Assembly (NCBI GenBank): GCA_041394705.1
Contig: JAWKHS010000005.1
Coordinates: forward strand, 107,374 to 171,373
DNA: 64,000 bases
Reading direction: 5' to 3'
From: Vicinamibacterales bacterium
GTDB lineage: Bacteria; Acidobacteriota; Vicinamibacteria; Vicinamibacterales; UBA2999
How positions within the stretch are numbered: the first letter of the stretch is position 1; each line of letters opens with the position of its first letter. This document shows positions 5,790-47,345 of the stretch, piece by piece. The position numbers were made by a program, and so were the translations under genes. Under the pieces are notes generated by a model. The model worked only from the letters and a program-made list of their open reading frames with translations. It was not told the origin of the DNA and made no database searches.

Positions 5790-7259
5790 TCAGCCAGCGA
5801 CGACGATCTTCAGGCGCGTGCCGGCGGGAGGCTGGACGTTCACGGCGAATCCGTTCATGAGCGCCAGCCGCGACGCGGACACCAGGCCCTGTCCCGCGCG
5901 CTGGGCGATCGACTGCCAGGAGTCGTCGGCCCGCGACGTGTAGAGCGCGATCTCGTTGGGCCGGATGTTGGAGGCCTCGCGGGTCGACAGCTCGCGGAAC
6001 GACCGGAGGGCCGCGTCGAACTCGGCGTCGACGCTCGGGAACTCGGCCTCGGGCGCGACGCCCGCCACCATGTACACCTGGCGCCCGACGGGCAGGTGGG
6101 CGGCGCGCAGGCGGACCTTGCCGATCTCGCGGGCCTTGCCGTGATAGAGCCCGACGAACGCGTCGATCCCGTTCACCTGCTCGACGCCGCCGCTGTCGAG
6201 CGTGAAGCCCAGCCCGCGCATGTGCCGCCTGGCCCCGTCGGCGAGGGATGGGCCGCGTGCCGCGTCCGCCGCCCGCAGCACCATCAGCACCGTGCCGCCG
6301 TCGGGTTCGGCGATGACCTGGTCGCTGGTGTTCTGGACCGTCCAGGCCTCCGGGAAGTCGATGGCGATGCGGAGATCGGGGTGCAGGAAGCGGTGTCCGC
6401 GCACGACCCCTTCCGCCGGGTTGTCGCCATACGCCATCCCCGCCACGTGCTGCAGAAAGTCATCCCGGTTGCGCGCGCGTTCGCCGCCGTCGGCCGCCGC
6501 CGCGACCGGAGTGGCCTTCGCCACGCGGGAGCCAGGATCTGGATGGGTCGACAGCCAGTTCGGGATGCCTCGCTCGCTGAGGGCGTCGAGCCGAGACAGG
6601 GTGGCCAGGAAGCGCGGCACGGCGTTCGGATCCCAGCCGGCCTTCGCTGCATACTCGACGCCGAGCCGATCCGACTCGAGCTCGTCGTCGCGGCCGTATT
6701 TCAGGAAGAGCGTTCCCAGCCCCATCGAGGCCACGTCGCGGAACGGCGCGACGCCGGGAATGAAGATGCTGGCCAGGAGCACGCCGAGCGACCCGCCCGC
6801 GGAGCGCGTGTACTGCTGCGAGGCGTGGCGCGCCGTGACATGCCCCACTTCGTGCCCGAGGACGCCCGCCAGCTCGGACTCGTCGCCCAGATGCGCCAGC
6901 AACCCGCGTGTGACGTACACGTAGCCCCCAGGCAGGGCGAACGCGTTCACCACGGGGACGTCCACCACGGTGAACGTCCAGGGCAGCGTGGGACGGTGTG
7001 AGACGGCGGCGATCCGTTCGCCCACGCCGCTGACGTAGCGCTGCAGCGCCTCGTCGTGGTAGACGCCCATCTCCCGACGGATCTCCGCGTCGCCCTGCCT
7101 GCCGAGGGCGATCTCCTCGGCCTCGCTGATGAGCGTCACCTCGCGGCGCCCGGTGACGGGATTGGAGGCGCAGGCCGACGCGACCAGCACGGGGAGCACC
7201 AGCCAGGCGAGCCGTCCGCGGCGCCACGCAGCGGAGGAGATGCGAGTCGTTCGGACCAT
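5790..7259 (-). CDS. M48 family zinc metalloprotease lipoprotein with C-terminal LysM-like domain
   Basis: The track ORF runs 5790..7358. The internal ATG at 7259 gives MVRTTRISSAAWRRGRLAWLVLPVLVASACASNP (lipobox) and has GGAG 9 nt upstream. The HEVGHV zinc motif is present. The C-terminus (YTSRADDSWQSIAQRAG...LALMNGF...GTRLKIV) resembles LysM. Confidence 0.85.
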   Translation of the reverse strand: MVRTTRISSAAWRRGRLAWLVLPVLVASACASNPVTGRREVTLISEAEEIALGRQGDAEIRREMGVYHDEALQRYVSGVGERIAAVSHRPTLPWTFTVVDVPVVNAFALPGGYVYVTRGLLAHLGDESELAGVLGHEVGHVTARHASQQYTRSAGGSLGVLLASIFIPGVAPFRDVASMGLGTLFLKYGRDDELESDRLGVEYAAKAGWDPNAVPRFLATLSRLDALSERGIPNWLSTHPDPGSRVAKATPVAAAADGGERARNRDDFLQHVAGMAYGDNPAEGVVRGHRFLHPDLRIAIDFPEAWTVQNTSDQVIAEPDGGTVLMVLRAADAARGPSLADGARRHMRGLGFTLDSGGVEQVNGIDAFVGLYHGKAREIGKVRLRAAHLPVGRQVYMVAGVAPEAEFPSVDAEFDAALRSFRELSTREASNIRPNEIALYTSRADDSWQSIAQRAGQGLVSASRLALMNGFAVNVQPPAGTRLKIVVAG

Positions 7260-7446: not shown

Positions 7447-8373
7447 TCAGGTCGTCGCGGGATCCGCGTCCATCGACGCCGGCTCGACCAGGGGCACGCC
7501 CAGGTCGGTGAGCATCCGGCGCAGTTGTCCGATCACCGACGGCGGCGTGGGCCCGAGTGGCGCGCGCGGCAGTCCGCCGTCGTAGCCCATCAGGTCGAGC
7601 GCCGCCTTGAGAGCGGGCACGCCGTGCAAGCCTCCGATGGTGCGGGCCAGCGGCGTCAGCGTGCGCTGCAGGGCACGCGCCTCGAGGAACCGGCCCGCGC
7701 GCACGTGGTCGAGGAGGTCCGCACACAGGTCGGGCACGAGGCCGGCCAGCGCCAGGATCGCGCCATGGGCGCCGGCGGCGAGGCCGGTGAAGTACGTGAC
7801 GCCGCTGCCCGCCAGCACGAAGAACTCGGGGCCCGAGCGCGAGATGTAGTCCGCCAGCAGCGACGCATCGCTGCCGGATTCCTTCATGCCCACGATGTTC
7901 GGATGCTCGGCCAGCAGGCCGACCGCGTCCGGTGGCAGGGTCACGCCCGTGTACATCGACACGTTGTAGAGCAGCACGGGCACGGGGCTGGCCTCGGCGA
8001 CGGCCACGTAGTGGCGCACGAAGACGTCGGCCGTCATCATGTTCTTGAAGAACGAGGGCGTCCGGACGAGCACGGCGTCGGCGCCGGCGCGGGCCGCGCG
8101 CAGCGTCGCGGCGATGGTGGCCTTGGTGGACTCGGCCCCCGTGCCGGCGATGAGGGGCCGCGTGGACGGCATGGCCGACCGCGCGGCGGCGATGACTCGC
8201 TCGGCTTCGGAGTCGTCGAGCATCACCGCTTCGCCGTTGGATCCCAGCACGACGAGGCCCGTGAGCCGCGTCTGCATGTACCGCTCGACGTTGCGGTGCA
8301 GGGCCGCATCGTCGACGGTGTCGTGGTTGAACGGCGTGACGATGGGCGTGTACAGACCAGCGAGCGGAGACAT
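7447..8373 (-). CDS. dihydrodipicolinate synthase/N-acetylneuraminate lyase (DapA) family enzyme
   Basis: 308-aa ORF. Motifs: TPIVTPF, VLGSNGE, LYNVSMYTG, and the Schiff-base lysine context IVGMKESG. It starts 9 nt after the stop of the upstream ABC permease gene. The exact substrate cannot be called from sequence. Confidence 0.85.
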   Translation of the reverse strand: MSPLAGLYTPIVTPFNHDTVDDAALHRNVERYMQTRLTGLVVLGSNGEAVMLDDSEAERVIAAARSAMPSTRPLIAGTGAESTKATIAATLRAARAGADAVLVRTPSFFKNMMTADVFVRHYVAVAEASPVPVLLYNVSMYTGVTLPPDAVGLLAEHPNIVGMKESGSDASLLADYISRSGPEFFVLAGSGVTYFTGLAAGAHGAILALAGLVPDLCADLLDHVRAGRFLEARALQRTLTPLARTIGGLHGVPALKAALDLMGYDGGLPRAPLGPTPPSVIGQLRRMLTDLGVPLVEPASMDADPATT

Positions 8374-8382
8374 GCCCCGAGT

Positions 8383-9327
8383 CTATCGCGGTTGCGCGGC
8401 CTCGGCGGCGCTCGGCGAGGTGCGGCCGAGCAGGACGTTCGTGGCCAGGACGACGAGGAAGATCGCGAGGGCCGGCGCGAGCATCCAGGGCGCCCGGGCG
8501 AGCGCCGAGACGTTCGCGGCCTCGCTGAGGGCCGTACCCCAGCTGGGAATCGTCTCGGGGAAGCCGAGCCCGACATACGAGAGCGTGGCCTCGGTCAGGA
8601 CGAAGCTGGGCACGAGCAGCGCGGTCTGCACACCCAGGAAGCCGCCGCAGGCCGGCAGCAGGTGCCGGGTCACGATTCGCCACCGTGACGCGCCGAGCGC
8701 CCGGGCCGCCTGGACGTACTCCTCGCGCACCTCCGCCCGCACGATGGACCACACGCCACGCGCGACACGAGGCCATCCCAGCAGCACGAGGATCGCCGCC
8801 AGCGCGACGACGACTGTCGAGGTCGGCAGCACGAGCGGCAGGGCCGCCCGAAGGGCCACCACCGCGTAGAGGGCGGGGATCACGATCAGCACGTCGCCGA
8901 ACCGGAGGATGCCCTGCTCGACGACGCCGCCCGCGAGTCCCGCCCAGGCCCCGGCGAGCGCTCCGACGACCAGCGTGACGGCCGTCGCCAGCAAGGCGAG
9001 CCCGAGCGACGCCCTCGCGCCGTGAAGTACGCGGGAGAGGACGTCGCGACCGAAGCCGTCGGCGCCCAGCAACAGGACGGGCGGCGATCCCGCCGGCGCG
9101 GACCAGGGCAGCGCCGCGCGCCGCGCGGTGTCGACGTCGAAGCGCTGTTCGAGCCGGTCGACCAGCACGAGCGGATGCGCGTAGAAGCCGCCGCCGTCCA
9201 TGTGGACGCGCATCGGGGGCGCGTAGAGATAGTCGTCGAAGCGCTGGACGGGTCCGTACGGCGCGGCGAACGGGCCGAAGAGCGCGACGGCCGCCAGGGA
9301 CGCGACCAGCCAGCCCGCCCGATTCAT
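8383..9327 (-). CDS. ABC transporter permease (peptide/nickel, DppC/OppC-like)
   Basis: The real start is the internal ATG at 9327 (MNRAGWLVASLAAVALFGPF...). It overlaps the stop of the upstream permease by 4 nt (ATGA). The typical GADGFGRDVLSR motif and the EAA-like loop ARALGASRWRIVTRHLLP are present. The remaining 316 N-terminal codons of track ORF 8383..10275 are an Arg/Gly/Ala-rich artefact. Confidence 0.9.
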   Translation of the reverse strand: MNRAGWLVASLAAVALFGPFAAPYGPVQRFDDYLYAPPMRVHMDGGGFYAHPLVLVDRLEQRFDVDTARRAALPWSAPAGSPPVLLLGADGFGRDVLSRVLHGARASLGLALLATAVTLVVGALAGAWAGLAGGVVEQGILRFGDVLIVIPALYAVVALRAALPLVLPTSTVVVALAAILVLLGWPRVARGVWSIVRAEVREEYVQAARALGASRWRIVTRHLLPACGGFLGVQTALLVPSFVLTEATLSYVGLGFPETIPSWGTALSEAANVSALARAPWMLAPALAIFLVVLATNVLLGRTSPSAAEAAQPR

Positions 9328-10286
9328 CGGGCGCCCCGCGTCCGCACCCGCGGGTCGACGGCGGCGTGCACGACATCGGCGATCGTCGTGCCGATCGCGA
9401 GCGCCACCGCGCCAGCGGCGCCGCAGCCGGCGACGAGCCAGACGTCGCGTGCGCGCAGCGCATCCATCATGAGCCGTCCGATGCCCGGCCAGGCCGTCAC
9501 GATCTCCACCACGAAGCTGCCGCTGAACAGGCCGCCGACGATCACGCCGTAGGTGCCGAGGACGGGCGCGAGGGACACTGGCCAGGCGTGACGCCGAACC
9601 GCCGCGTCCACGTCGAGTCCGCGCGCCCGGCTGGCAACCACGAACGGGCGGCCCATCACCTCGCCAATGGCGCCGGCCTGCAGACGCTCCAGCGTGGCGG
9701 CCAGGGGCAGCGCGAGCGCGAGCGTCGGCACCGGCAGGTGCCGCGCGAGGTCCACGGCCCACGCGACACCCGTCACTCCGGCCGACGTCATGCCGCCGGC
9801 CGGCAGCCAGCCCGTGACGGCCGCCACGTAGACCAGCGCGAGGGCACCGACGAGCGGGGGCACGGAGAGCACGGCCAGCGACACGGCGCGCACGGCACGG
9901 CTCCCGCGGTCCGTCCTGGAGCCGGCGTATCGTCCAAGCGGCACGCCGATGGCCGTGGCCACGACGAGGGAGACGACCGCCAGGAGACCGGTGTTGAGGA
10001 AGCGCTCGCCCACCAGGTCGGCGACCGGGCGGCGAAACAGCGTCGAGCGGCCGAGGTCCAGCCGGAGCAGCCCGCGGAGCCAGTGGCCGTACTGCACGAG
10101 AAACGGCTGGTCGAGGCCGAGCTCGGCGCGCAGCGCCGCCCGCTCCGCGTCCGTCTGGTCCAGTCCGGCCACCGTGGCGGCATCGCCGGGGGCACTCCTG
10201 GCGAGCACCAGCGTGAGCGACGCCACGACCAGCGCGAAGACAGCGCCGCCCGCCACCCGACGCGCCGCGAACCACGCCAGCGACAT
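9324..10286 (-). CDS. ABC transporter permease (peptide/nickel, DppB/OppB-like)
   Basis: Internal ATG at 10286 (MSLAWFAARRVAGGAVFALVV...), 5 nt after the stop of the binding-protein gene. It has a six-TM profile and the loop SRARGLDVDAAVRRHAWP. The long N-terminal extension of track ORF 9324..12053 runs in another frame across the binding-protein gene. Confidence 0.9.
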   Translation of the reverse strand: MSLAWFAARRVAGGAVFALVVASLTLVLARSAPGDAATVAGLDQTDAERAALRAELGLDQPFLVQYGHWLRGLLRLDLGRSTLFRRPVADLVGERFLNTGLLAVVSLVVATAIGVPLGRYAGSRTDRGSRAVRAVSLAVLSVPPLVGALALVYVAAVTGWLPAGGMTSAGVTGVAWAVDLARHLPVPTLALALPLAATLERLQAGAIGEVMGRPFVVASRARGLDVDAAVRRHAWPVSLAPVLGTYGVIVGGLFSGSFVVEIVTAWPGIGRLMMDALRARDVWLVAGCGAAGAVALAIGTTIADVVHAAVDPRVRTRGAR

Positions 10287-10291
10287 GGACG

Positions 10292-12034
10292 CTACGGCGC
10301 GGACCCGACCACGCTGAGCGTGTCGGCGCTCCAGAGCAGTTGGGGCCGGTTCACGGTCGGCACCTCGTGTCGCACACGGGAGCTGACGGCGACGTACACC
10401 CGGGGCGCGGCGAAGTAGAGCGCCGGCAGGTGCCGGCTGAACACGAGTTGGGCGTCGCGGAACAGGCGGACGCGCTCGGCCTCGTCGACGGCGGCGGCCT
10501 GGCGCGTGACGAGGTCGTCCAGCTCGCGTTCCCAGTCCGTGGCCGGCGTGGGTTCCGCGATGTTCCAGATGTGCGCGCTGCCGCTGCTCATCCAGAAGTC
10601 CCGCTGCATCGCAGGATCGGGATCCGACGTGACGTAATTGAAGAAGATCGCCTCGAACGAGCCGGACATCAGGCGCTCGATGAGCGCGCCGGGCTCGAGC
10701 GGCACGACGTCCACGCCGATGCCGACCGCTTCGAGGCTTTCCTTCAGCACCTGCGCGCCGCGCTGAAGCGACGTATTGGATTTGAAGGTCAGGACGGTGA
10801 AGCGCGCCTCGTTCCCCGCCTCGTCTTCGAGGAACGCGTCGGCGTCCCGGTTCGCGAGCCCGAGACTCGCCAGGAGCGCTTCGGCCTTCGACCGGTCGAA
10901 CGCGTAGCGTGGCAGGTCCGGCCAGAACCACTGGCGGTTTCCCGGAGTGACGGGGCCGTGCACGGGGACGGCCGCGCCCAGGTAGACCGTGTTGGCGTAG
11001 GCCTCGCGGTCGACGGCGTGGCTGATGGCCTGCCGGAACTCGTCGGTGGGCAGCCACCTCCGACGAGGGTCCTTCGCCCACGCGCTTGGCCGCAGGTTGA
11101 AGAAGAAGACGTCCGGGTCGAGGGCCACGCCGACCTCGATCACCCGGACCGCCCCTTGGCGCTCGAGGTCCCGGGCCCTGGCGTAGTCCTCGGCGCGCAG
11201 CTGCTGCTGGGTGAGGTCGAGGCGCCCCGCTTGCAGCCCCAGCAGCTCGGCGTTCTGGTCGGGCACGATCTCGACGACGAGGCCATCGAGGTACGGCAGG
11301 GGCTGGCCGGCCTCGTCGCGGCGCCAGTAGTGGGGGTTGCGGGCCAGAATCAGCCGCTGTCCCGGCTCGTAGGAGCTCAGGACGAACGGCCCCATCCCGC
11401 TCATCTCGGCCGGTGGAGTCGTCGGTCCCCATGCCTGGGACATCGTGCCGTCGGCCTGGGCCCGTCCGAGACGGTGCTTGGGCAGAATGACGAAGTTGTC
11501 GAGCAGACGGAGACCGGGCCCGAAGGGCTTGGGGAACGTGACCACGACGGTGCGGCTGTCCGGCGTCGCGACGGTGAGCGGCTGATCGTCGATCAGGAGG
11601 TTCCCGGCCAGGACGCTCTTGACGGCGGGGTCGGCGATGGCGGCGAACGTGAACGCCACGTCCTCTGCGGTGAACGGCTCGCCGTCTGACCAGCGGAGTC
11701 CCTCCCGCAACACCAGCGTGTAGACGAGCCCATCGGGAGACGACGTCCAGCGCTCCGCCAGCCACGGCTCGAGTTCCTGGGTGGCCCGGTTGACCCGCAC
11801 CAGGCGGGCCTGCGTCAGGAGCGTGACGAACTCGGTCGCGTAATCGCGCGAGACCAGCCGGTTGAACGACCGGGGTTCGGAGCGGAGCGAGGCGACGAGC
11901 GTGCCGCCCCGGACGGGCGCCTCGACGGCGGGGCGTGACGGGCCGGGGCCAGGCCGTCGGTCGCTCCACCAGAAGAGGGCGACGAGCCCAACCACGATCA
12001 CGGCGACGAGGGGAAATCGCGAGTGTCGGTTCAC
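10292..12034 (-). CDS. ABC transporter substrate-binding protein, family 5 (peptide/nickel)
   Basis: The track ORF starts at 12151 with TTG. Codons upstream of the in-frame GTG at 12034 are A/T-ending and not gene-like. The GTG start gives VNRHSRFPLVAVIVVGLVALFWW, an N-terminal anchor. The body matches SBP family 5: GTLVASLRSEPRSFN, LVRVN, YTLVLREGLRWSDGEPFTAEDV, NPHYWR. The start is uncertain. Confidence 0.85.
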   Translation of the reverse strand: MNRHSRFPLVAVIVVGLVALFWWSDRRPGPGPSRPAVEAPVRGGTLVASLRSEPRSFNRLVSRDYATEFVTLLTQARLVRVNRATQELEPWLAERWTSSPDGLVYTLVLREGLRWSDGEPFTAEDVAFTFAAIADPAVKSVLAGNLLIDDQPLTVATPDSRTVVVTFPKPFGPGLRLLDNFVILPKHRLGRAQADGTMSQAWGPTTPPAEMSGMGPFVLSSYEPGQRLILARNPHYWRRDEAGQPLPYLDGLVVEIVPDQNAELLGLQAGRLDLTQQQLRAEDYARARDLERQGAVRVIEVGVALDPDVFFFNLRPSAWAKDPRRRWLPTDEFRQAISHAVDREAYANTVYLGAAVPVHGPVTPGNRQWFWPDLPRYAFDRSKAEALLASLGLANRDADAFLEDEAGNEARFTVLTFKSNTSLQRGAQVLKESLEAVGIGVDVVPLEPGALIERLMSGSFEAIFFNYVTSDPDPAMQRDFWMSSGSAHIWNIAEPTPATDWERELDDLVTRQAAAVDEAERVRLFRDAQLVFSRHLPALYFAAPRVYVAVSSRVRHEVPTVNRPQLLWSADTLSVVGSAP

Positions 12035-12266
12035 TTGTTGGCCGACCGGCCAAGATGTTGGCCGATCGCCTTTCTTACCGCTTTCATCGAAGAAAGCGGG
12101 AGGTTTGCACGCAGATTTTGCGATCGTCGCAGTTTCTGCGGCAGCAGCCAATCCGTTGACCGGCTGCGCCGTTCGGGGAGCGCCCCGAGACCGGCTGCCA
12201 TCCTAGGCCATCAAGTTATTTCAGTTCAACAACTTAGGGGCAGACTCCGGGCGCGAAGCCCGAGGG

Positions 12267-12282
12267 TGGCACTCACCCTGCC
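12267..12282 (+). promoter_or_regulatory. sigma-54 (-24/-12) promoter candidate TGGCAC-N5-CTGC
   Basis: TGGCACTCACCCTGCC has GG at 12268-69 and GC at 12280-81, so the spacing is GG-N10-GC. It lies 24 nt upstream of the ATG at 12305, with GGAG at 12295-98. A sigma-54 activator is encoded in the same locus. Confidence 0.6.
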
Positions 12283-12304
12283 ATCCATATCGGCGGAGTT
12301 CGCA

Positions 12305-12514
12305 ATGGACAGCAGCACCCAGGACCTGACCGGCTTCCCGTCCGCCCCTCAGTTGGGACGCAGCGTGTCCATCGAACGCGCCGCCGAGATTCTCGGCGTC
12401 TCGCGGAGAACTGTTTACTACCGCATCAGCGAAGGCGTCCTGCAGACCATCCGCACCAGGGGTGGTTCCCAGCGGGTCGTCGTGGAGTCGCTGACGGCGC
12501 CAGAGAAGCACTAG
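12305..12514 (+). CDS. small helix-turn-helix (excisionase/MerR-type, HTH_17-like) DNA-binding protein
   Basis: Internal ATG of track ORF 12023..12514, preceded by GGAG. The 69-aa product is MDSSTQDL...SIERAAEILGVSRRTVYYRISEGVLQTIRTRGGSQRVVVESL, the classic excisionase-family HTH. Confidence 0.7.
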   Translation: MDSSTQDLTGFPSAPQLGRSVSIERAAEILGVSRRTVYYRISEGVLQTIRTRGGSQRVVVESLTAPEKH

Positions 12515-12540: not shown

Positions 12541-14226
12541 ATGACTCGTCGCCTCCTTGCCGTCATCGCTGCTCTCGCAATCGCCGTTCCGGCGGCCGCC
12601 GCGGGCTCGCAGCGGCGTGCTCGTCTGTCTGCCGACCTCCGAGCGGAAGTCGGCCGGGGGAACACCAACACCGTGCAGGTGATCGTCGACGGCGACGACG
12701 CGACGATCAGCCGCATCCTGTCGCGCCACCCGCTGGACCTCAAGCGGCGGCTGCGCCACGGCGCGGTCGTCGAGGTGCCTGCGGGCCAGCTCGACGCCCT
12801 GGCCGGCGACCTCGACATCGGCAAGCTCTCGTCGAACGCGCTGGTCACGTCGCACATGGCACTGACCACGGCGACGACGGGCGCCGACGCTGCCCTCGCG
12901 GGCCTCGTCGAGACGCTCGGCGCCGTGAACGGCTCGGGCGTGGGTGTGGCCGTGATCGACTCCGGCATCGCGCGCCACCGGTCGCTGAACGGGAAGGTGA
13001 TCGCCCGGGTGGACTTCACGGCCGACGGGCGTGGGCGCGACGGCTACGGCCACGGCACGCACGTGGCCGGCATCGTCGCCGGCAGCGCCCTGCCGGGACG
13101 CAACGGCGGCGCGGCGGGCATGGCCCCCGGGGCGAACCTGATCGACCTTCGCGTGCTCGGTGACGACGGCTCTGGCGACGTCGCCTCCGTCATCGAAGCC
13201 GTCGACTGGGCCGTCGAGAACCGCGGCCGCTACAACATCCGCATCATCAACATGTCGCTCGGCACCGCGGTGACGCAGTCCTACAAGGACGACCCGCTGG
13301 ACCAGGCCGTGGAGCGCGCCGTGCGCGCGGGCATCCTCGTGGTGGCATCGGCCGGCAACCGCGGCCAGACCGAGGACGGCCGCATCGTGATGGGCAGCAT
13401 CACGGCCCCCGGCAACTCCCCGTACGTCCTGACCGTCGGCGCCGTCCGCGCCAACGGGACGGTCGGCCACGAAGACGACACGCTGGCCCCCTGGAGTTCC
13501 CGCGGTCCGACGCTCTACGACTACGTCATCAAGCCCGACATTGCGGCCCCCGGCAGCATGATCACGGCCGCTGGCGTCGACGGCTCCACCCTGGCCCAGA
13601 TTCGTCCGGACCGGCTCATCGGCCGCGGCGCGAACGCCTACATGACGCTCAGCGGCACCAGCATGTCGGCGGCCGTCGTCAGCGGCGCGGCGGCCCTCCT
13701 GATCGATGCGAACCCCCGCCTGACGCCGCTTGGCGTCCGCCTGGCTCTTCAGGCCTCGGCCGACTTCCTGCCCGACGCCGGCCTCCTCGGCGCGGGCGCG
13801 GGCGACCTGAACCTTGCCGGCGTGCTGCGCGACGGCGCCAAGCTGCCTACCCGCACGACGGCGGACCTCTTCCCGGTCAGCTGGGGCGTGAAGGTCAACC
13901 AGGAAATCGTCAACTGGAGCGGCGTCCGCGGTGACGCGTTGGTGTGGGGCGACACGCTGGTCTGGGGCGACGCGCTGGTCTGGGGCGACGCGCTGGTGTG
14001 GGGCGATACGCTGGTGTGGGGCGACACCCTGGTGTGGGGTGACACGCTGGTGTGGGGCGACACCTTGGTCTGGGGCGACGCGCTAGTCTGGGGAGACACC
14101 TTGGTCTGGGGCGAGGCGCTGGTGTGGGGCGACACCTTGGTGTGGGGCGACTCAATCATCTGGGGCAATTCCATCATTTGGGGCAATTCGATCATCTGGG
14201 GCAACTCCATCATTTGGGGAAACTGA
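12541..14226 (+). CDS. secreted S8 (subtilisin-family) serine peptidase with C-terminal Trp-hexapeptide repeat tail
   Basis: 561-aa ORF. The signal peptide is MTRRLLAVIAALAIAVPAAAAG. Catalytic triad contexts are VAVIDSGI (Asp), GHGTHVAG (His) and SGTSMSAAVVSG (Ser). The last 98 residues are 16 tandem hexapeptides. Confidence 0.92.
   Translation: MTRRLLAVIAALAIAVPAAAAGSQRRARLSADLRAEVGRGNTNTVQVIVDGDDATISRILSRHPLDLKRRLRHGAVVEVPAGQLDALAGDLDIGKLSSNALVTSHMALTTATTGADAALAGLVETLGAVNGSGVGVAVIDSGIARHRSLNGKVIARVDFTADGRGRDGYGHGTHVAGIVAGSALPGRNGGAAGMAPGANLIDLRVLGDDGSGDVASVIEAVDWAVENRGRYNIRIINMSLGTAVTQSYKDDPLDQAVERAVRAGILVVASAGNRGQTEDGRIVMGSITAPGNSPYVLTVGAVRANGTVGHEDDTLAPWSSRGPTLYDYVIKPDIAAPGSMITAAGVDGSTLAQIRPDRLIGRGANAYMTLSGTSMSAAVVSGAAALLIDANPRLTPLGVRLALQASADFLPDAGLLGAGAGDLNLAGVLRDGAKLPTRTTADLFPVSWGVKVNQEIVNWSGVRGDALVWGDTLVWGDALVWGDALVWGDTLVWGDTLVWGDTLVWGDTLVWGDALVWGDTLVWGEALVWGDTLVWGDSIIWGNSIIWGNSIIWGNSIIWGN
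13930..14223 (+). repeat. in-frame tandem repeat, 16 x 18 nt (+6 nt), encoding (G-D-[AT]-L-V-W)x12 then (G-[DN]-S-I-I-W)x4, G-N
   Basis: I read the repeat unit by unit: ggtgacgcgttggtgtgg / ggcgacacgctggtctgg / ... / ggcaactccatcatttgg / ggaaac. Differences between units are almost all synonymous: ggc/ggt/gga, gac/gat, ctg/ttg/cta, gtg/gtc, atc/att, tcc/tcg/tca. Confidence 0.95.
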
Positions 14227-16562
14227 AGCCCGAGCGTTGCCACTTCGAGAATTACTGGGCAGCGAGCACTCGACTGCCGTCGTAGGAACCCGAGGTAATA
14301 TATGAAGCCGCTCATCATCTGGGGCGAGTAGCCAACCGTTTCCTCCCGCTGTGGTAGACACTCGTCGTAGCGCCATCGGTCGTGTCTACCTCTGGGCGGT
14401 GCCGGCGGCCGGAATAGGGACGTTGGCGTGGGCTGTCACTGACCTCCTAGCCCATTCCCCGTCCCCTTACTGGATCGCGCTGGCGACTCTGACCGCCCTT
14501 ACCGGCTCGTTCACGGTAAAAATTCCTGGCATGGTGGCTCGGCTGTCGGTTTCCGAGCCATTCGTCTTTGCGGCTGCCCTCCTGTTTGGCCCCGCCGCTG
14601 GCACTGCTACGGTAGCGATCGACGCGTGCGTCATGTCGCTTCGGCTAATGCCGAGCTTGCGGACGCCTCACCGTGTTCTGTTCAACGTCGGCACCCTGGT
14701 ACTGTCGGTCGCGAGCTCTTCGTGGGTATTCTTCATCCTTTCTGGCATTGACCCGCGGGCACCGGAATACCCTTCAGTCGACTCCTTTATCTGGCCGCTT
14801 TACGCCTTCAGCGCTTGCTGCTTCTTTGTGAACAGCGGGTTGGTTGCGCTGGCGTTAAGCGTCGAGCGCAAGAGCTCGCCCGTAACGATCTGGCGAGAGC
14901 AGTTCATGTGGCTTTCGGTGAACTACTTCGCCGGCGCTTCGGTGGCTGCGCTCATTGTCGTCTTCGCCCGAACTGTCGACGTCGCGATACTTGGAATCGT
15001 CATTCCGCTGATTGCCATTTCTTACCTAACATTCCGCACAACCCTGGGCCGTCTAGACGACGCAAACAAGCACCTTGGCGACTTGAATTCGCTATACCTG
15101 TCGACCATCGAAACGCTCGCGATGGCGATCGACGCCAAGGACCAAGTGACCCACAGTCACATCCGCAGGGTACAGCGATACGCCACCGGCCTAGCGCGCG
15201 CGCTGGGAATACAAAACGAAAAGCAAGTCAAAGCAATCGAAGCGGCAGCACTCCTGCACGACATGGGCAAGCTGGCAATCCCTGAGTTCATATTGAACAA
15301 ACCCGGCAAGCTCACTAGTCGGGAGTTCTCGGTGATGAAGACCCACGCAGCCGTCGGGGCTGACCTGTTGTCGTCTATCCGGTTTCCTTACCCCGTCGTG
15401 CCAATCGTGAGACACCATCACGAGAACTGGGATGGAAGTGGCTATCCGGACGGCCTCCGCGGTCCCGCAATTCCAATCGGAGCCAGGATCCTCGCCGTTG
15501 TCGACTGCTACGATGCTCTTACTTCTCATCGACCGTACAGGCCAGCGCTCTCGGCCAGTCAAGCCCTAGAGATTCTGACGCAGCGGCGCGGCAAGATGTA
15601 CGACCCACTGGTCGTCGATGCATTTGTTCGCGAGCATGCCTCACTGAGCACGCAGGCCGAGTTGCAGGACTTCCCAACCGTTCTGCTCGCGACTCAGGCG
15701 GACGCCACGCCTGAACCCATTGACGACAAACTTGAGCAGCAAGACACGCCAATCGAGTCGCTGCGCCTTCTGGCCAGCGTGTCGGCGTTTCCAGGAGGTC
15801 CTCCAACTCGAGTCGTGTGCCGGCAGCTTGTCGACAGCTTGCACGCACTCGTGCCGTTTGACACGGCGGCTGTGTTCGTCCTTAGCGAGGCTTCAAGCGA
15901 TGCCGAGGTGCTGTATGTCGATGGCTCCGCCGCGCATGTCCTCACCGGGCAGCGTATCCCGATAGCGGAGCGCCTCACTGGCTGGGTTGCTGCACACCGG
16001 ACGGCGGTGTGGAATTCGGACGCAAGGCTTGATCTTGGACCGATGAATGCGAGCACCACGCTTTCGCTCGGCTCCAGCCTGCCGCTCTACCAGAACGAGA
16101 CTCTCTTTGGCGTGCTCTCGCTTTACGGTCGCCCCGAGCACGAGATCACCGTTGGCCAGCGACGCGCGCTGGAGTCATTGCTTCCCATTCTATCGGCACA
16201 CATTGGCGATTCCCTGGCACGTCCTGGTACTGCGATTGACTGCACCGCACCGCAGCCTCGAGAGGCAGCTTTGTCTGCGCTTGAGTCGCTGCTTTCACAC
16301 AATCGCCGCAGCAGCTCTGAGGACGCGGTTGCAATCGTGGCCGTCGCGATGTCTGCGCTAGTTTCAGACGGTGCGCCGCAGAATTCACTAGAAGCAGCGA
16401 CCCGGACTCTTGCGGTTCGGCTTTCGCCAACCGTCGCATCAAAGCGATGTGTTCTAAAGATTGCCGATGGGCATCTGCTCTTGTGCGGACTGGATAGCGT
16501 GGACGCCACCGAACTTGAGCAAGAAGTATTGACGGCGGCGAAAGTCTCGGCCCTGCAGCCAT

Positions 16563-19466
<2,904 letters not shown>

Positions 19467-31872: not shown

Positions 31873-31888
31873 TGGCAAACGCATTGCA
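31873..31888 (+). promoter_or_regulatory. sigma-54 (-24/-12) promoter candidate TGGCAA-N5-TTGCA
   Basis: TGGCAAACGCATTGCA has GG at 31874-75 and GC at 31886-87, so the spacing is GG-N10-GC. It is a near-consensus match, 17-23 nt upstream of the ATGs at 31905 and 31911 of the PilZ gene. It overlaps the GTG at 31872 used by the ORF track, which argues against that start. Confidence 0.6.
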
Positions 31889-47287: not shown

Positions 47288-47345
47288 GGGGCCGATGCTA
47301 TCCCAGCCCCGGTCCTGGTCCGGCGCGGTGGTCTACAGTAGGGAT

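Follow-up and report, generated by a model that had tools for sequence, protein, structure and literature searches.

The closest described counterparts of the regulatory region examined here are the enhancer-dependent sigma-54 promoters, such as glnAp2 with its activator NtrC, nifH with NifA and the integration host factor (IHF), Pu with XylR and IHF, and pspA with PspF. The region lies in a 64,000-nucleotide stretch of a metagenome-assembled Vicinamibacterales (Acidobacteriota) genome (contig JAWKHS010000005.1, positions 107,374 to 171,373, forward strand), the whole of which is called the window here, and its central element is a -24/-12 sequence, TGGCAC-TCACC-CTGCC, upstream of a small helix-turn-helix (HTH) gene and a gene for a secreted S8 protease. 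As in the described promoters, a GG-N10-GC core with TGGCAC at -24 is present, a bacterial enhancer-binding protein (bEBP) with a GAFTGA-containing AAA+ domain and a Fis-type HTH is encoded next to the target, and conserved dyads, which are candidate activator sites, are located 100-250 bp upstream. The region differs from them in that the -12 sequence is CTGCC or GTGCC rather than TTGCA/T, that a leader of just 12 nt or so is predicted, and that the conserved element which separates the dyads from the promoter would make a poor IHF site and resembles a sigma-70-type promoter for divergent transcription. From the comparison of homologous loci, we estimate the probability at roughly 0.8 that TGGCAC-N5-CTGC is a functional sigma-54 (RpoN) promoter of the operon reaching from the HTH gene to the bEBP gene, and that it is activated by a bEBP.

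The bEBP itself is comparable to the one-component activators NorR, FhlA, XylR/DmpR, PrpR and RocR, as it has no receiver domain and consists of an N-terminal sensor, a small alpha/beta (GAF/PAS-like) module, an AAA+ domain and an HTH. In the protein encoded here, however, the sensor is a TPR-like superhelix of about 400 residues without a Pfam match, the best structural matches of which are MalT domain III and peptide-binding TPR proteins. To our knowledge, no bEBP with a TPR-like superhelix as the sensor has been characterised.

A further resemblance is to Rap/Phr and other RRNPP systems of Firmicutes. Phr peptides are processed by subtilisin, Epr and Vpr. Both cases combine a secreted S8 protease and an Opp importer, which includes an SBP_bac_5 protein, with short hydrophobic peptides and a cytoplasmic regulator that contains TPRs. 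Here, the regulator is a sigma-54 activator, not an HTH or phosphatase protein of the RRNPP type, and the candidate peptides are a leaderless micro-ORF (open reading frame) of nine codons and tandem repeats on the C-terminus of the protease itself. The likeness lies in this shared set of parts, not in sequence homology to RRNPP proteins.

Sequence and conservation of the -24/-12 element

A preliminary description of this DNA, made from the letters alone, had proposed a sigma-54 promoter directly upstream of the HTH/S8 gene pair. The sequence TGGCACTCACCCTGC was indeed found on the plus strand at 12267-12281, with the GG (12268-12269) and the GC (12280-12281) at GG-N10-GC spacing and the complete element ending at 12282, and the GGAG at 12295-12298 and the ATG at 12305 were also located where that description had placed them. 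The exact pattern TGGCACN5YTGC occurred twice in the window against 0.43 occurrences expected, and 11 sites with at most one mismatch were found where 10.8 were expected. A weight matrix, which was an approximate one set by hand from the published consensus and not taken from a published table, gave the promoter 11.7 bits, ranking it 7th among 127,970 positions. Shuffled sequences contained 4.4 +/- 2.3 sites per window that scored at least as high. On the scale of the window the matrix therefore did not single out the promoter, but about 0.009 equally good sites were expected when the 270-nt intergenic region was taken alone and read on the correct strand. A bare match to the -24/-12 pattern is weak evidence by itself.

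The evidence that carries the assignment is conservation. The S8 protein was scanned against one genome per species, resulting in 80 loci, and the HTH gene was present directly upstream of the S8 gene in 22 of them. These loci and the window make up a set of 23; four variants of the cassette that lack the HTH gene extend it to 27 tabulated promoters, and two more distant loci reached via other S8 homologues, L081 and L082, bring the total to 29 Vicinamibacteria-type cassette loci. The closest relative of the window, L001, has an HTH protein with 91% and an S8 protein with 95% identity.

The motif TGGCA(C/T)-N5-N(T/C)GC was detected in all 23 loci of the HTH-containing set, 37-47 nt before the HTH start codon; by comparison, 1.94 Mb from the same loci contained the relaxed motif at a background frequency of 0.042 per kb and strand. 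In the HTH-less variants the same element stood directly before the S8 gene, which is the first gene there, and L081 and L082 carried it as well. Positions -26 to -22 (TGGCA) and -13/-12 (GC) were identical in 27/27 promoters, -14 was T in 24, and -21 was a pyrimidine in every case. On the other hand, none of the 12 positions upstream of the element exceeded 0.38 bits and none of the spacer 0.5 bits, -19 and -18 being below 0.1 bit, so that the sigma-54 contact positions were selectively conserved while flanks and spacer remained near background. The distance between GG and GC was constant, with zero indels across the 29 loci. The conservation was also asymmetric: the upstream TGGCA was invariant, the downstream TGCCA-like half was not, and the reverse-strand reading was lost in several loci. 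This fixes the orientation toward the HTH gene and disfavours a symmetric site for a dimer.

The conservation of the -24/-12 element is thus far beyond chance, and a bEBP with the GAFTGA motif was encoded in cis in every locus of sufficient length. Because of this footprint and this constant linkage, the promoter before the small HTH gene is very probably real, and the proposal of a sigma-54 promoter followed by a Shine-Dalgarno sequence and an ATG is strongly supported. Other canonical sigma-54-like sites upstream of ORFs in the window are also counted in favour of it.

From the usual distance of 11-13 nt from the -12 C, transcription is predicted to start at 12292-12294 on the plus strand, at about 12293, which would leave a leader of about 12 nt. 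The 13-nt distance from the GC to the GGAG and the sequence ATATCGGCGGAG were kept in most HTH-containing loci, and GGAG or GGAGG was found at the Shine-Dalgarno position of the HTH gene (12295-12298, plus strand) in nearly all loci.

Conserved dyads upstream of the promoter

Two dyads of the type GGCCAA-N4-TTGGCC are located upstream of the promoter. The distal one, GGCCAA-GATG-TTGGCC, is perfect in the window (12048-12063, centre at about -238 from the predicted start) and has an extra half-site TTGGCC beside it at 12038-12043. It is a candidate bEBP site and/or an operator of the divergent operon described below. The proximal one, AGCCAA-TCCG-TTGACC (AGCCAATCCGTTGACC), at 12146-12161 with its centre at about -140, is a candidate bEBP site. 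Allowing at most two mismatches, the distal dyad was found in 23/23 loci (perfect in 15) and the proximal dyad in 14/23, at -115 to -121 from the T at -26, being more degenerate and still recognisable elsewhere; the background rate of such dyads was 0.115 per kb. The sequence of the arms was conserved and the 4-nt centre varied, a pattern typical of palindromes bound by a dimeric protein.

The dyads were retained in the HTH-less variants of the cassette and in L081. Since they persist without the HTH gene, the 69-residue HTH protein is disfavoured and the bEBP favoured as the protein that would bind them, with an unlinked factor as a possible candidate too. The two dyads lay 94-98 bp apart, centre to centre, in loci that have the HTH gene, as against 87-89 bp in the HTH-less variants L014, L022 and L054, and this difference of about one helical turn suggests a phasing constraint between both sites. 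The two dyads are the best candidates for the activator sites.

A partly conserved inverted repeat, TTGCAC(G/A) / (C/T)GTGCAA with arms about 24 nt apart, was also observed between the dyads (12104-12143 in the window, alignment columns 62-147). Its arms are located at 12110-12123 and 12127-12140 and are shifted toward the distal dyad in more distant loci. This repeat could be the site of another regulator.

The block between the dyads and the promoter

Downstream of the dyads and ahead of the promoter, the alignments contained a conserved 40-bp block at 12199-12238 (minus strand), which reads CATCCTAGGCCATCAA-N10-TTCAACAACTTAGG in the window and GCATCCTAGACCACCAA-N11-GCAATCACTTAGG as the consensus over the loci, and which is called Block B here. 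Its minus strand carries a -35 sequence TTGAAC (12229-12224), an 18-nt spacer and a -10 sequence TAGGAT (12205-12200). The pattern TTGnnn-N17/18-TAnnAT on this strand was found in 20/29 loci, whereas 0.004 occurrences were expected per region. The -10 hexamers were TAGGAT, TACGAT and TACCAT, differing in the two middle positions, and TACAAT was seen in L014 by inspection. In the window, the block matches the sigma-70 consensus at 8/12 positions only; a strict scan of the region found nothing that reached 9/12 and no sigma-70-type promoter on the plus strand. No second copy of the block was present in about 1.1 Mb, and an interpretation as a repeated element or regulon motif was rejected, as a 10-mer in common with 47327-47335 was not enriched either (10 found, 6.2 expected). 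An exact 9-mer, CTGCCATCC, occurs at the left edge of the block (12195-12203) and again in the -12 region (12278-12286), probably by chance.

The block faces a divergent operon on the minus strand, which begins with a gene for an SBP_bac_5 (OppA-like) solute-binding protein (SBP; 10292-12034) and continues, by Pfam, with OppB and OppC permease genes and a gene of the DHDPS family (8383-12034 for the row including SBP, and 7447-8373). The SBP gene was conserved as the divergent partner in all cassette loci. Block B may primarily be the sigma-70-type promoter of this SBP-OppB-OppC-DHDPS operon, an assignment that we hold tentatively, at slightly less than even chances, and it possibly doubles as a site for a bending protein or another DNA-binding protein. 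The possibility that the SBP gene has a divergent sigma-54 promoter of its own was also considered and rejected, since TGGCAG-N5-GTGCC, the sequence of the -24/-12 element on the minus strand, was not conserved, and no other conserved GG-N10-GC in this direction was noticed on inspection of the upstream alignments.

Activation model and alternative explanations

According to the proposed model, sigma-54 RNA polymerase would bind 12267-12282 as a closed complex. The cis-encoded bEBP would bind both dyads and reach this complex by looping, and its ATP-dependent remodelling would be needed for transcription to start near 12293. The obvious candidate activator is the product of the last gene of this cassette, and positive autoregulation would result.

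Several points weigh against this model. The matrix score, with our own matrix, is unexceptional when taken alone (rank 7, where chance alone would give about 4.4 sites as good per window), the -12 region reads CTGCC instead of TTGCA/T, and the predicted leader of about 12 nt is very short and puts the Shine-Dalgarno sequence at +3. Neither an rpoN gene nor an RpoN box was seen in the window or in the fetched loci (about 1.1 Mb), so that the sigma factor itself is presumed. The dyads are assigned to the bEBP by position and symmetry only. They were not recognisable in L082, and the start codon of SBP is only 14 nt away from the distal one, which might just as well serve the divergent operon as an operator or leader element; because of this short distance, synteny does not separate the two roles.

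The preliminary description had assembled the upstream region from other parts: two copies of a direct repeat GACCGGCTGC (12158-12167 and 12189-12198, 31 bp apart) as the activator sites, flanking a palindrome CGGGG-AGCG-CCCCG (12174-12187), and then an A/T-rich patch containing ATCAA-N4-TT (12210-12220) as the core of an IHF site. All these sequences are present, and the textbook order of upstream sites, an intervening element and a -24/-12 element does exist, but the parts that make it up are the two conserved dyads, the 40-bp block and the promoter. In favour of the direct repeat, shuffling the region produced an exact 10-nt repeat in no more than about 3% of cases, which is mildly unusual; it is nevertheless specific to the window, the copies in L001 having degraded to GCCCGGCTAG and GACCAGCCTC, which match each other at 5/10 positions. 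Neither copy was conserved in the upstream alignment, none was found in the loci beyond L001, and the link of copy 1 to the proximal dyad is no more than an overlap with the right arm of that dyad. Moreover, the usual targets of bEBPs with Fis-type HTH domains are dyads rather than direct repeats. The palindrome folded with z = -1.8 in the window, but over 23 loci the mean z was -0.08 on the plus strand and -0.18 on the minus strand, and a control segment gave +0.13; a hairpin of conserved structure at this position was thus rejected and the palindrome attributed to GC-driven chance. The patch is strongly A/T-rich for this genome (19/27 A/T at 12209-12235, in a window of 29% A+T). It is, however, the variable centre of the conserved block, and the homologous segment is not A/T-rich in most loci. 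From ATCAA-N4-TT, CAA alone was conserved and TT was not, and the sequence at 12210-12220 does not hold up as an IHF site, which would have WATCAANNNNTTR and an upstream A/T tract between the activator sites and the promoter. It is hardly credible, in our judgement, that the earlier architecture is right in full. An IHF- or HU-type bending site that aids the activator, as at nifH or Pu, could instead be sought in Block B, where a conserved CAA-N4-TTA (12227-12236) resembles the IHF core. This sequence agrees with WATCAANNNNTTR in the part that is conserved best, and it hardly varies from locus to locus. The predicted start is about 60-65 nt downstream of it, and it is located after the proximal dyad and before the -24 element. 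Against this, the W-A-T positions of the consensus are unmatched, the N4 (TCAC) and the GC-rich left half of 16 nt are conserved beyond what IHF requires, and the minus-strand promoter pattern described above shows the variability at -10 positions 3 and 4 that is typical of promoters. Bending as the main role of the block, in place of a divergent promoter, is accordingly considered unlikely, although the two roles are not mutually exclusive.

It may also be asked whether the TGGCA...GC sequence is recognised by something other than sigma-54, either as a site for a dimeric transcription factor (TGGCA-N7-TGCCA) or as a promoter of another type. Such an imperfect palindrome is readable in the window and in 15/23 loci, and the lack of rpoN in the DNA at hand would agree with it. 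However, TGGCA was kept in 27/27 promoters while the positions that would complete the palindrome, -11 and -10, were kept in 21/27 and 17/27 only; the invariant positions coincide with the sigma-54 contacts at the exact sigma-54 spacing; a GAFTGA bEBP, a class for which we know of no target besides sigma-54, is always present in cis; and the plus strand offered no sigma-70-type promoter in its place. A sigma-54-independent element is therefore regarded as very unlikely. The dyads, in turn, might be hairpins or operators in the leader of the divergent SBP/Opp operon and not enhancers. The distal dyad lies close to the SBP start codon, where no Shine-Dalgarno sequence is visible, both dyads would be transcribed if Block B is the SBP promoter, and in every locus the dyads come together with the SBP gene. 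RNAalifold, applied to the intergenic region on both strands, found the two dyads alone, the covariation term being -0.15 for each strand, and together with the lack of any Rfam match this led us to reject a conserved RNA structure there; conserved arms with a free centre are the signature of a protein-bound DNA palindrome and not of an RNA stem. A leader role for both dyads is doubtful for these reasons, even if it deserves somewhat more weight than the bending-site reading of Block B, and activator binding remains the preferred role of the dyads.

Genes of the predicted operon

The first gene of the operon (12305-12514, plus strand) encodes a 69-residue protein of the excisionase-family / Fis-like HTH type (Pfam HTH_17 and HTH_8, NCBIfam TIGR01764). 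It had 1119 homologues, and the aligned N-termini backed its start codon. The gene is missing in some variants of the cassette. In one homologue (P0199, 684 residues), HTH_17 is fused in frame to the S8 protease, in the order HTH, hydrophobic segment and protease, and this fusion could be either a real membrane-tethered HTH-protease or a read-through in gene calling. A second HTH paralogue was observed on the opposite strand just after the bEBP gene in three loci (L012, 13030-13200; L023, 13210-13341; L018, 13433-13564), and no -24/-12 element was seen upstream of it in these loci.

Further genes on the plus strand are those of the secreted S8 (subtilase) protease (12541-14226, Pfam Peptidase_S8) and of a membrane protein with HD-GYP and GAF domains of the cyclic di-GMP (c-di-GMP) phosphodiesterase type (14351-16675, Pfam HD_5, HD and GAF, with a weak MASE9 match). 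The HD-GYP gene was syntenic in every locus of sufficient length, and the order HTH, S8, HD-GYP, bEBP was kept in all sufficiently long loci among the 22. No terminator-like sites were found between the operon genes, and the gaps are short. The operon most likely extends from HTH through S8, the micro-ORF and HD-GYP to the bEBP, as judged from the DNA sequence, and it is because of this lack of terminator-like sites that the bEBP would be autoregulated.

The ORF of the bEBP was listed as 16563-19466 (plus strand; Pfam Sigma54_activat at 1.7e-62, AAA lid and HTH_8), and the true start probably lies between about 16670 and 16870. The protein comprises a TPR-like superhelix, a small alpha/beta domain, the sigma-54 AAA+ domain with an intact GAFTGA loop at ORF residue 717, and a Fis-type HTH; it is not a response regulator. 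An AlphaFold2 (AF2) model built from a 21-sequence alignment reached a pLDDT of 85.8 and showed about 21 paired helices over residues 8-411 of the modelled fragment, followed by the alpha/beta domain and the AAA+ module. Foldseek returned LGN, MalT domain III (TMt 0.65), the Rap-CSF complex 4gyo (TMt about 0.52) and peptide-binding TPR proteins; MalT and LGN fit as well as the Rap-CSF complex, and the likeness is generic TPR similarity. Pfam gave no match within the approximately 400 residues of the sensor.

Micro-ORF and repeat tail of the protease

A micro-ORF of nine codons, MKPLIIWGE*, is located at 14302-14331 on the plus strand, between the S8 and HD-GYP genes, and has its own Shine-Dalgarno sequence GAGG at 14292-14295. 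It is not an annotated gene. One such micro-ORF was present per locus, always in the gap between S8 and HD-GYP, in 22 loci as well as in L081 and L082. Its codons and stop codons varied while the peptide core [LIV][LIV]W[GDA] was kept. The pattern had no other match in about 1 Mb of plus-strand sequence, and no export signal was recognised in the peptide.

The same core motif recurs in the C-terminus of the S8 protease, where codons about 462-561 (DNA 13933-14224) encode about 17 tandem hexapeptides, as seen in the translation and with TRF, in the order (D/E)(A/T)LVWG x13 and then (D/N)SIIWG x4. The orthologues carry 5-21 copies, and in the wider family the core recurs every 6, 7, 8 or 12 residues. 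According to AF2, the catalytic part of the protease has a pLDDT above 90, and the tail, with 25-37, is predicted to be disordered. As Pfam found nothing in the tail of the protease in the window, and heptad versions in other proteins gave a weak beta-roll match only, a folded beta-solenoid is not supported. The repeat tail, which is exported as part of the protease, was also present on many S8 paralogues without the regulatory cassette. Strict co-variation of the micro-ORF peptide with the repeat unit was looked for and not found.

These parts could be arranged into a peptide-sensing autoinduction circuit, of a kind not known to have been described in Gram-negative bacteria, with the sigma-54 promoter as its output. 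The secreted protease would trim its own unstructured tail of about 17 xxLVWG/xSIIWG hexapeptides, the divergent Opp-like transporter would import the released peptides, and the TPR-like sensor of the bEBP would bind them and/or MKPLIIWGE. The bEBP would then activate the promoter, so that protease, peptide and activator would rise together, in a Rap/Phr-like logic wired to sigma-54. The occurrence of the repeat tail without the cassette, the generic nature of the TPR similarity and the silence of the literature all weaken this scheme; the literature search covered the cassette, sigma-54 in Acidobacteriota and the micropeptide sequence, and found nothing specific. We regard the circuit as improbable.

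Other sigma-54-like sites in the window

The best sigma-54-like site of the window, with 17.5 bits by the same matrix, was TGGCAAACGCATTGCA at 31873-31888 (plus strand). It is intergenic and located 32-38 nt upstream of the ATG of an ORF of about 260 residues without a Pfam match. Another, TGGTACGGCAGTTGCA at 7336-7321 (minus strand, 17.2 bits), is followed after 77 nt by the ATG of an M48 peptidase gene (5790-7259, minus strand), the gene that closes the divergent row of Opp and DHDPS genes at its far end. This second site is probably not conserved in L081, since there the M48 gene follows its neighbour at a gap of 16 nt. No Rfam family was matched anywhere in the window.

Biological implications

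As a promoter, the -24/-12 element is an ordinary one, one more of the sigma-54 type, and the surrounding locus is the more interesting part. The element provides a well-supported regulatory anchor in Vicinamibacteria, which are abundant soil Acidobacteriota and are represented here by metagenome assemblies only. Concrete cis-elements are now at hand: besides the -24/-12 element itself, these are the two dyads and the block with the putative divergent promoter. It ties sigma-54 control to a conserved module of two operons whose functions would be proteolysis outside the cell (S8), uptake of peptides (Opp-like) and turnover of c-di-GMP (HD-GYP). Two uncharacterised features of the locus, the micro-ORF and the array of Trp-containing hexapeptides carried by the protease, may be signs of peptide-based regulation.

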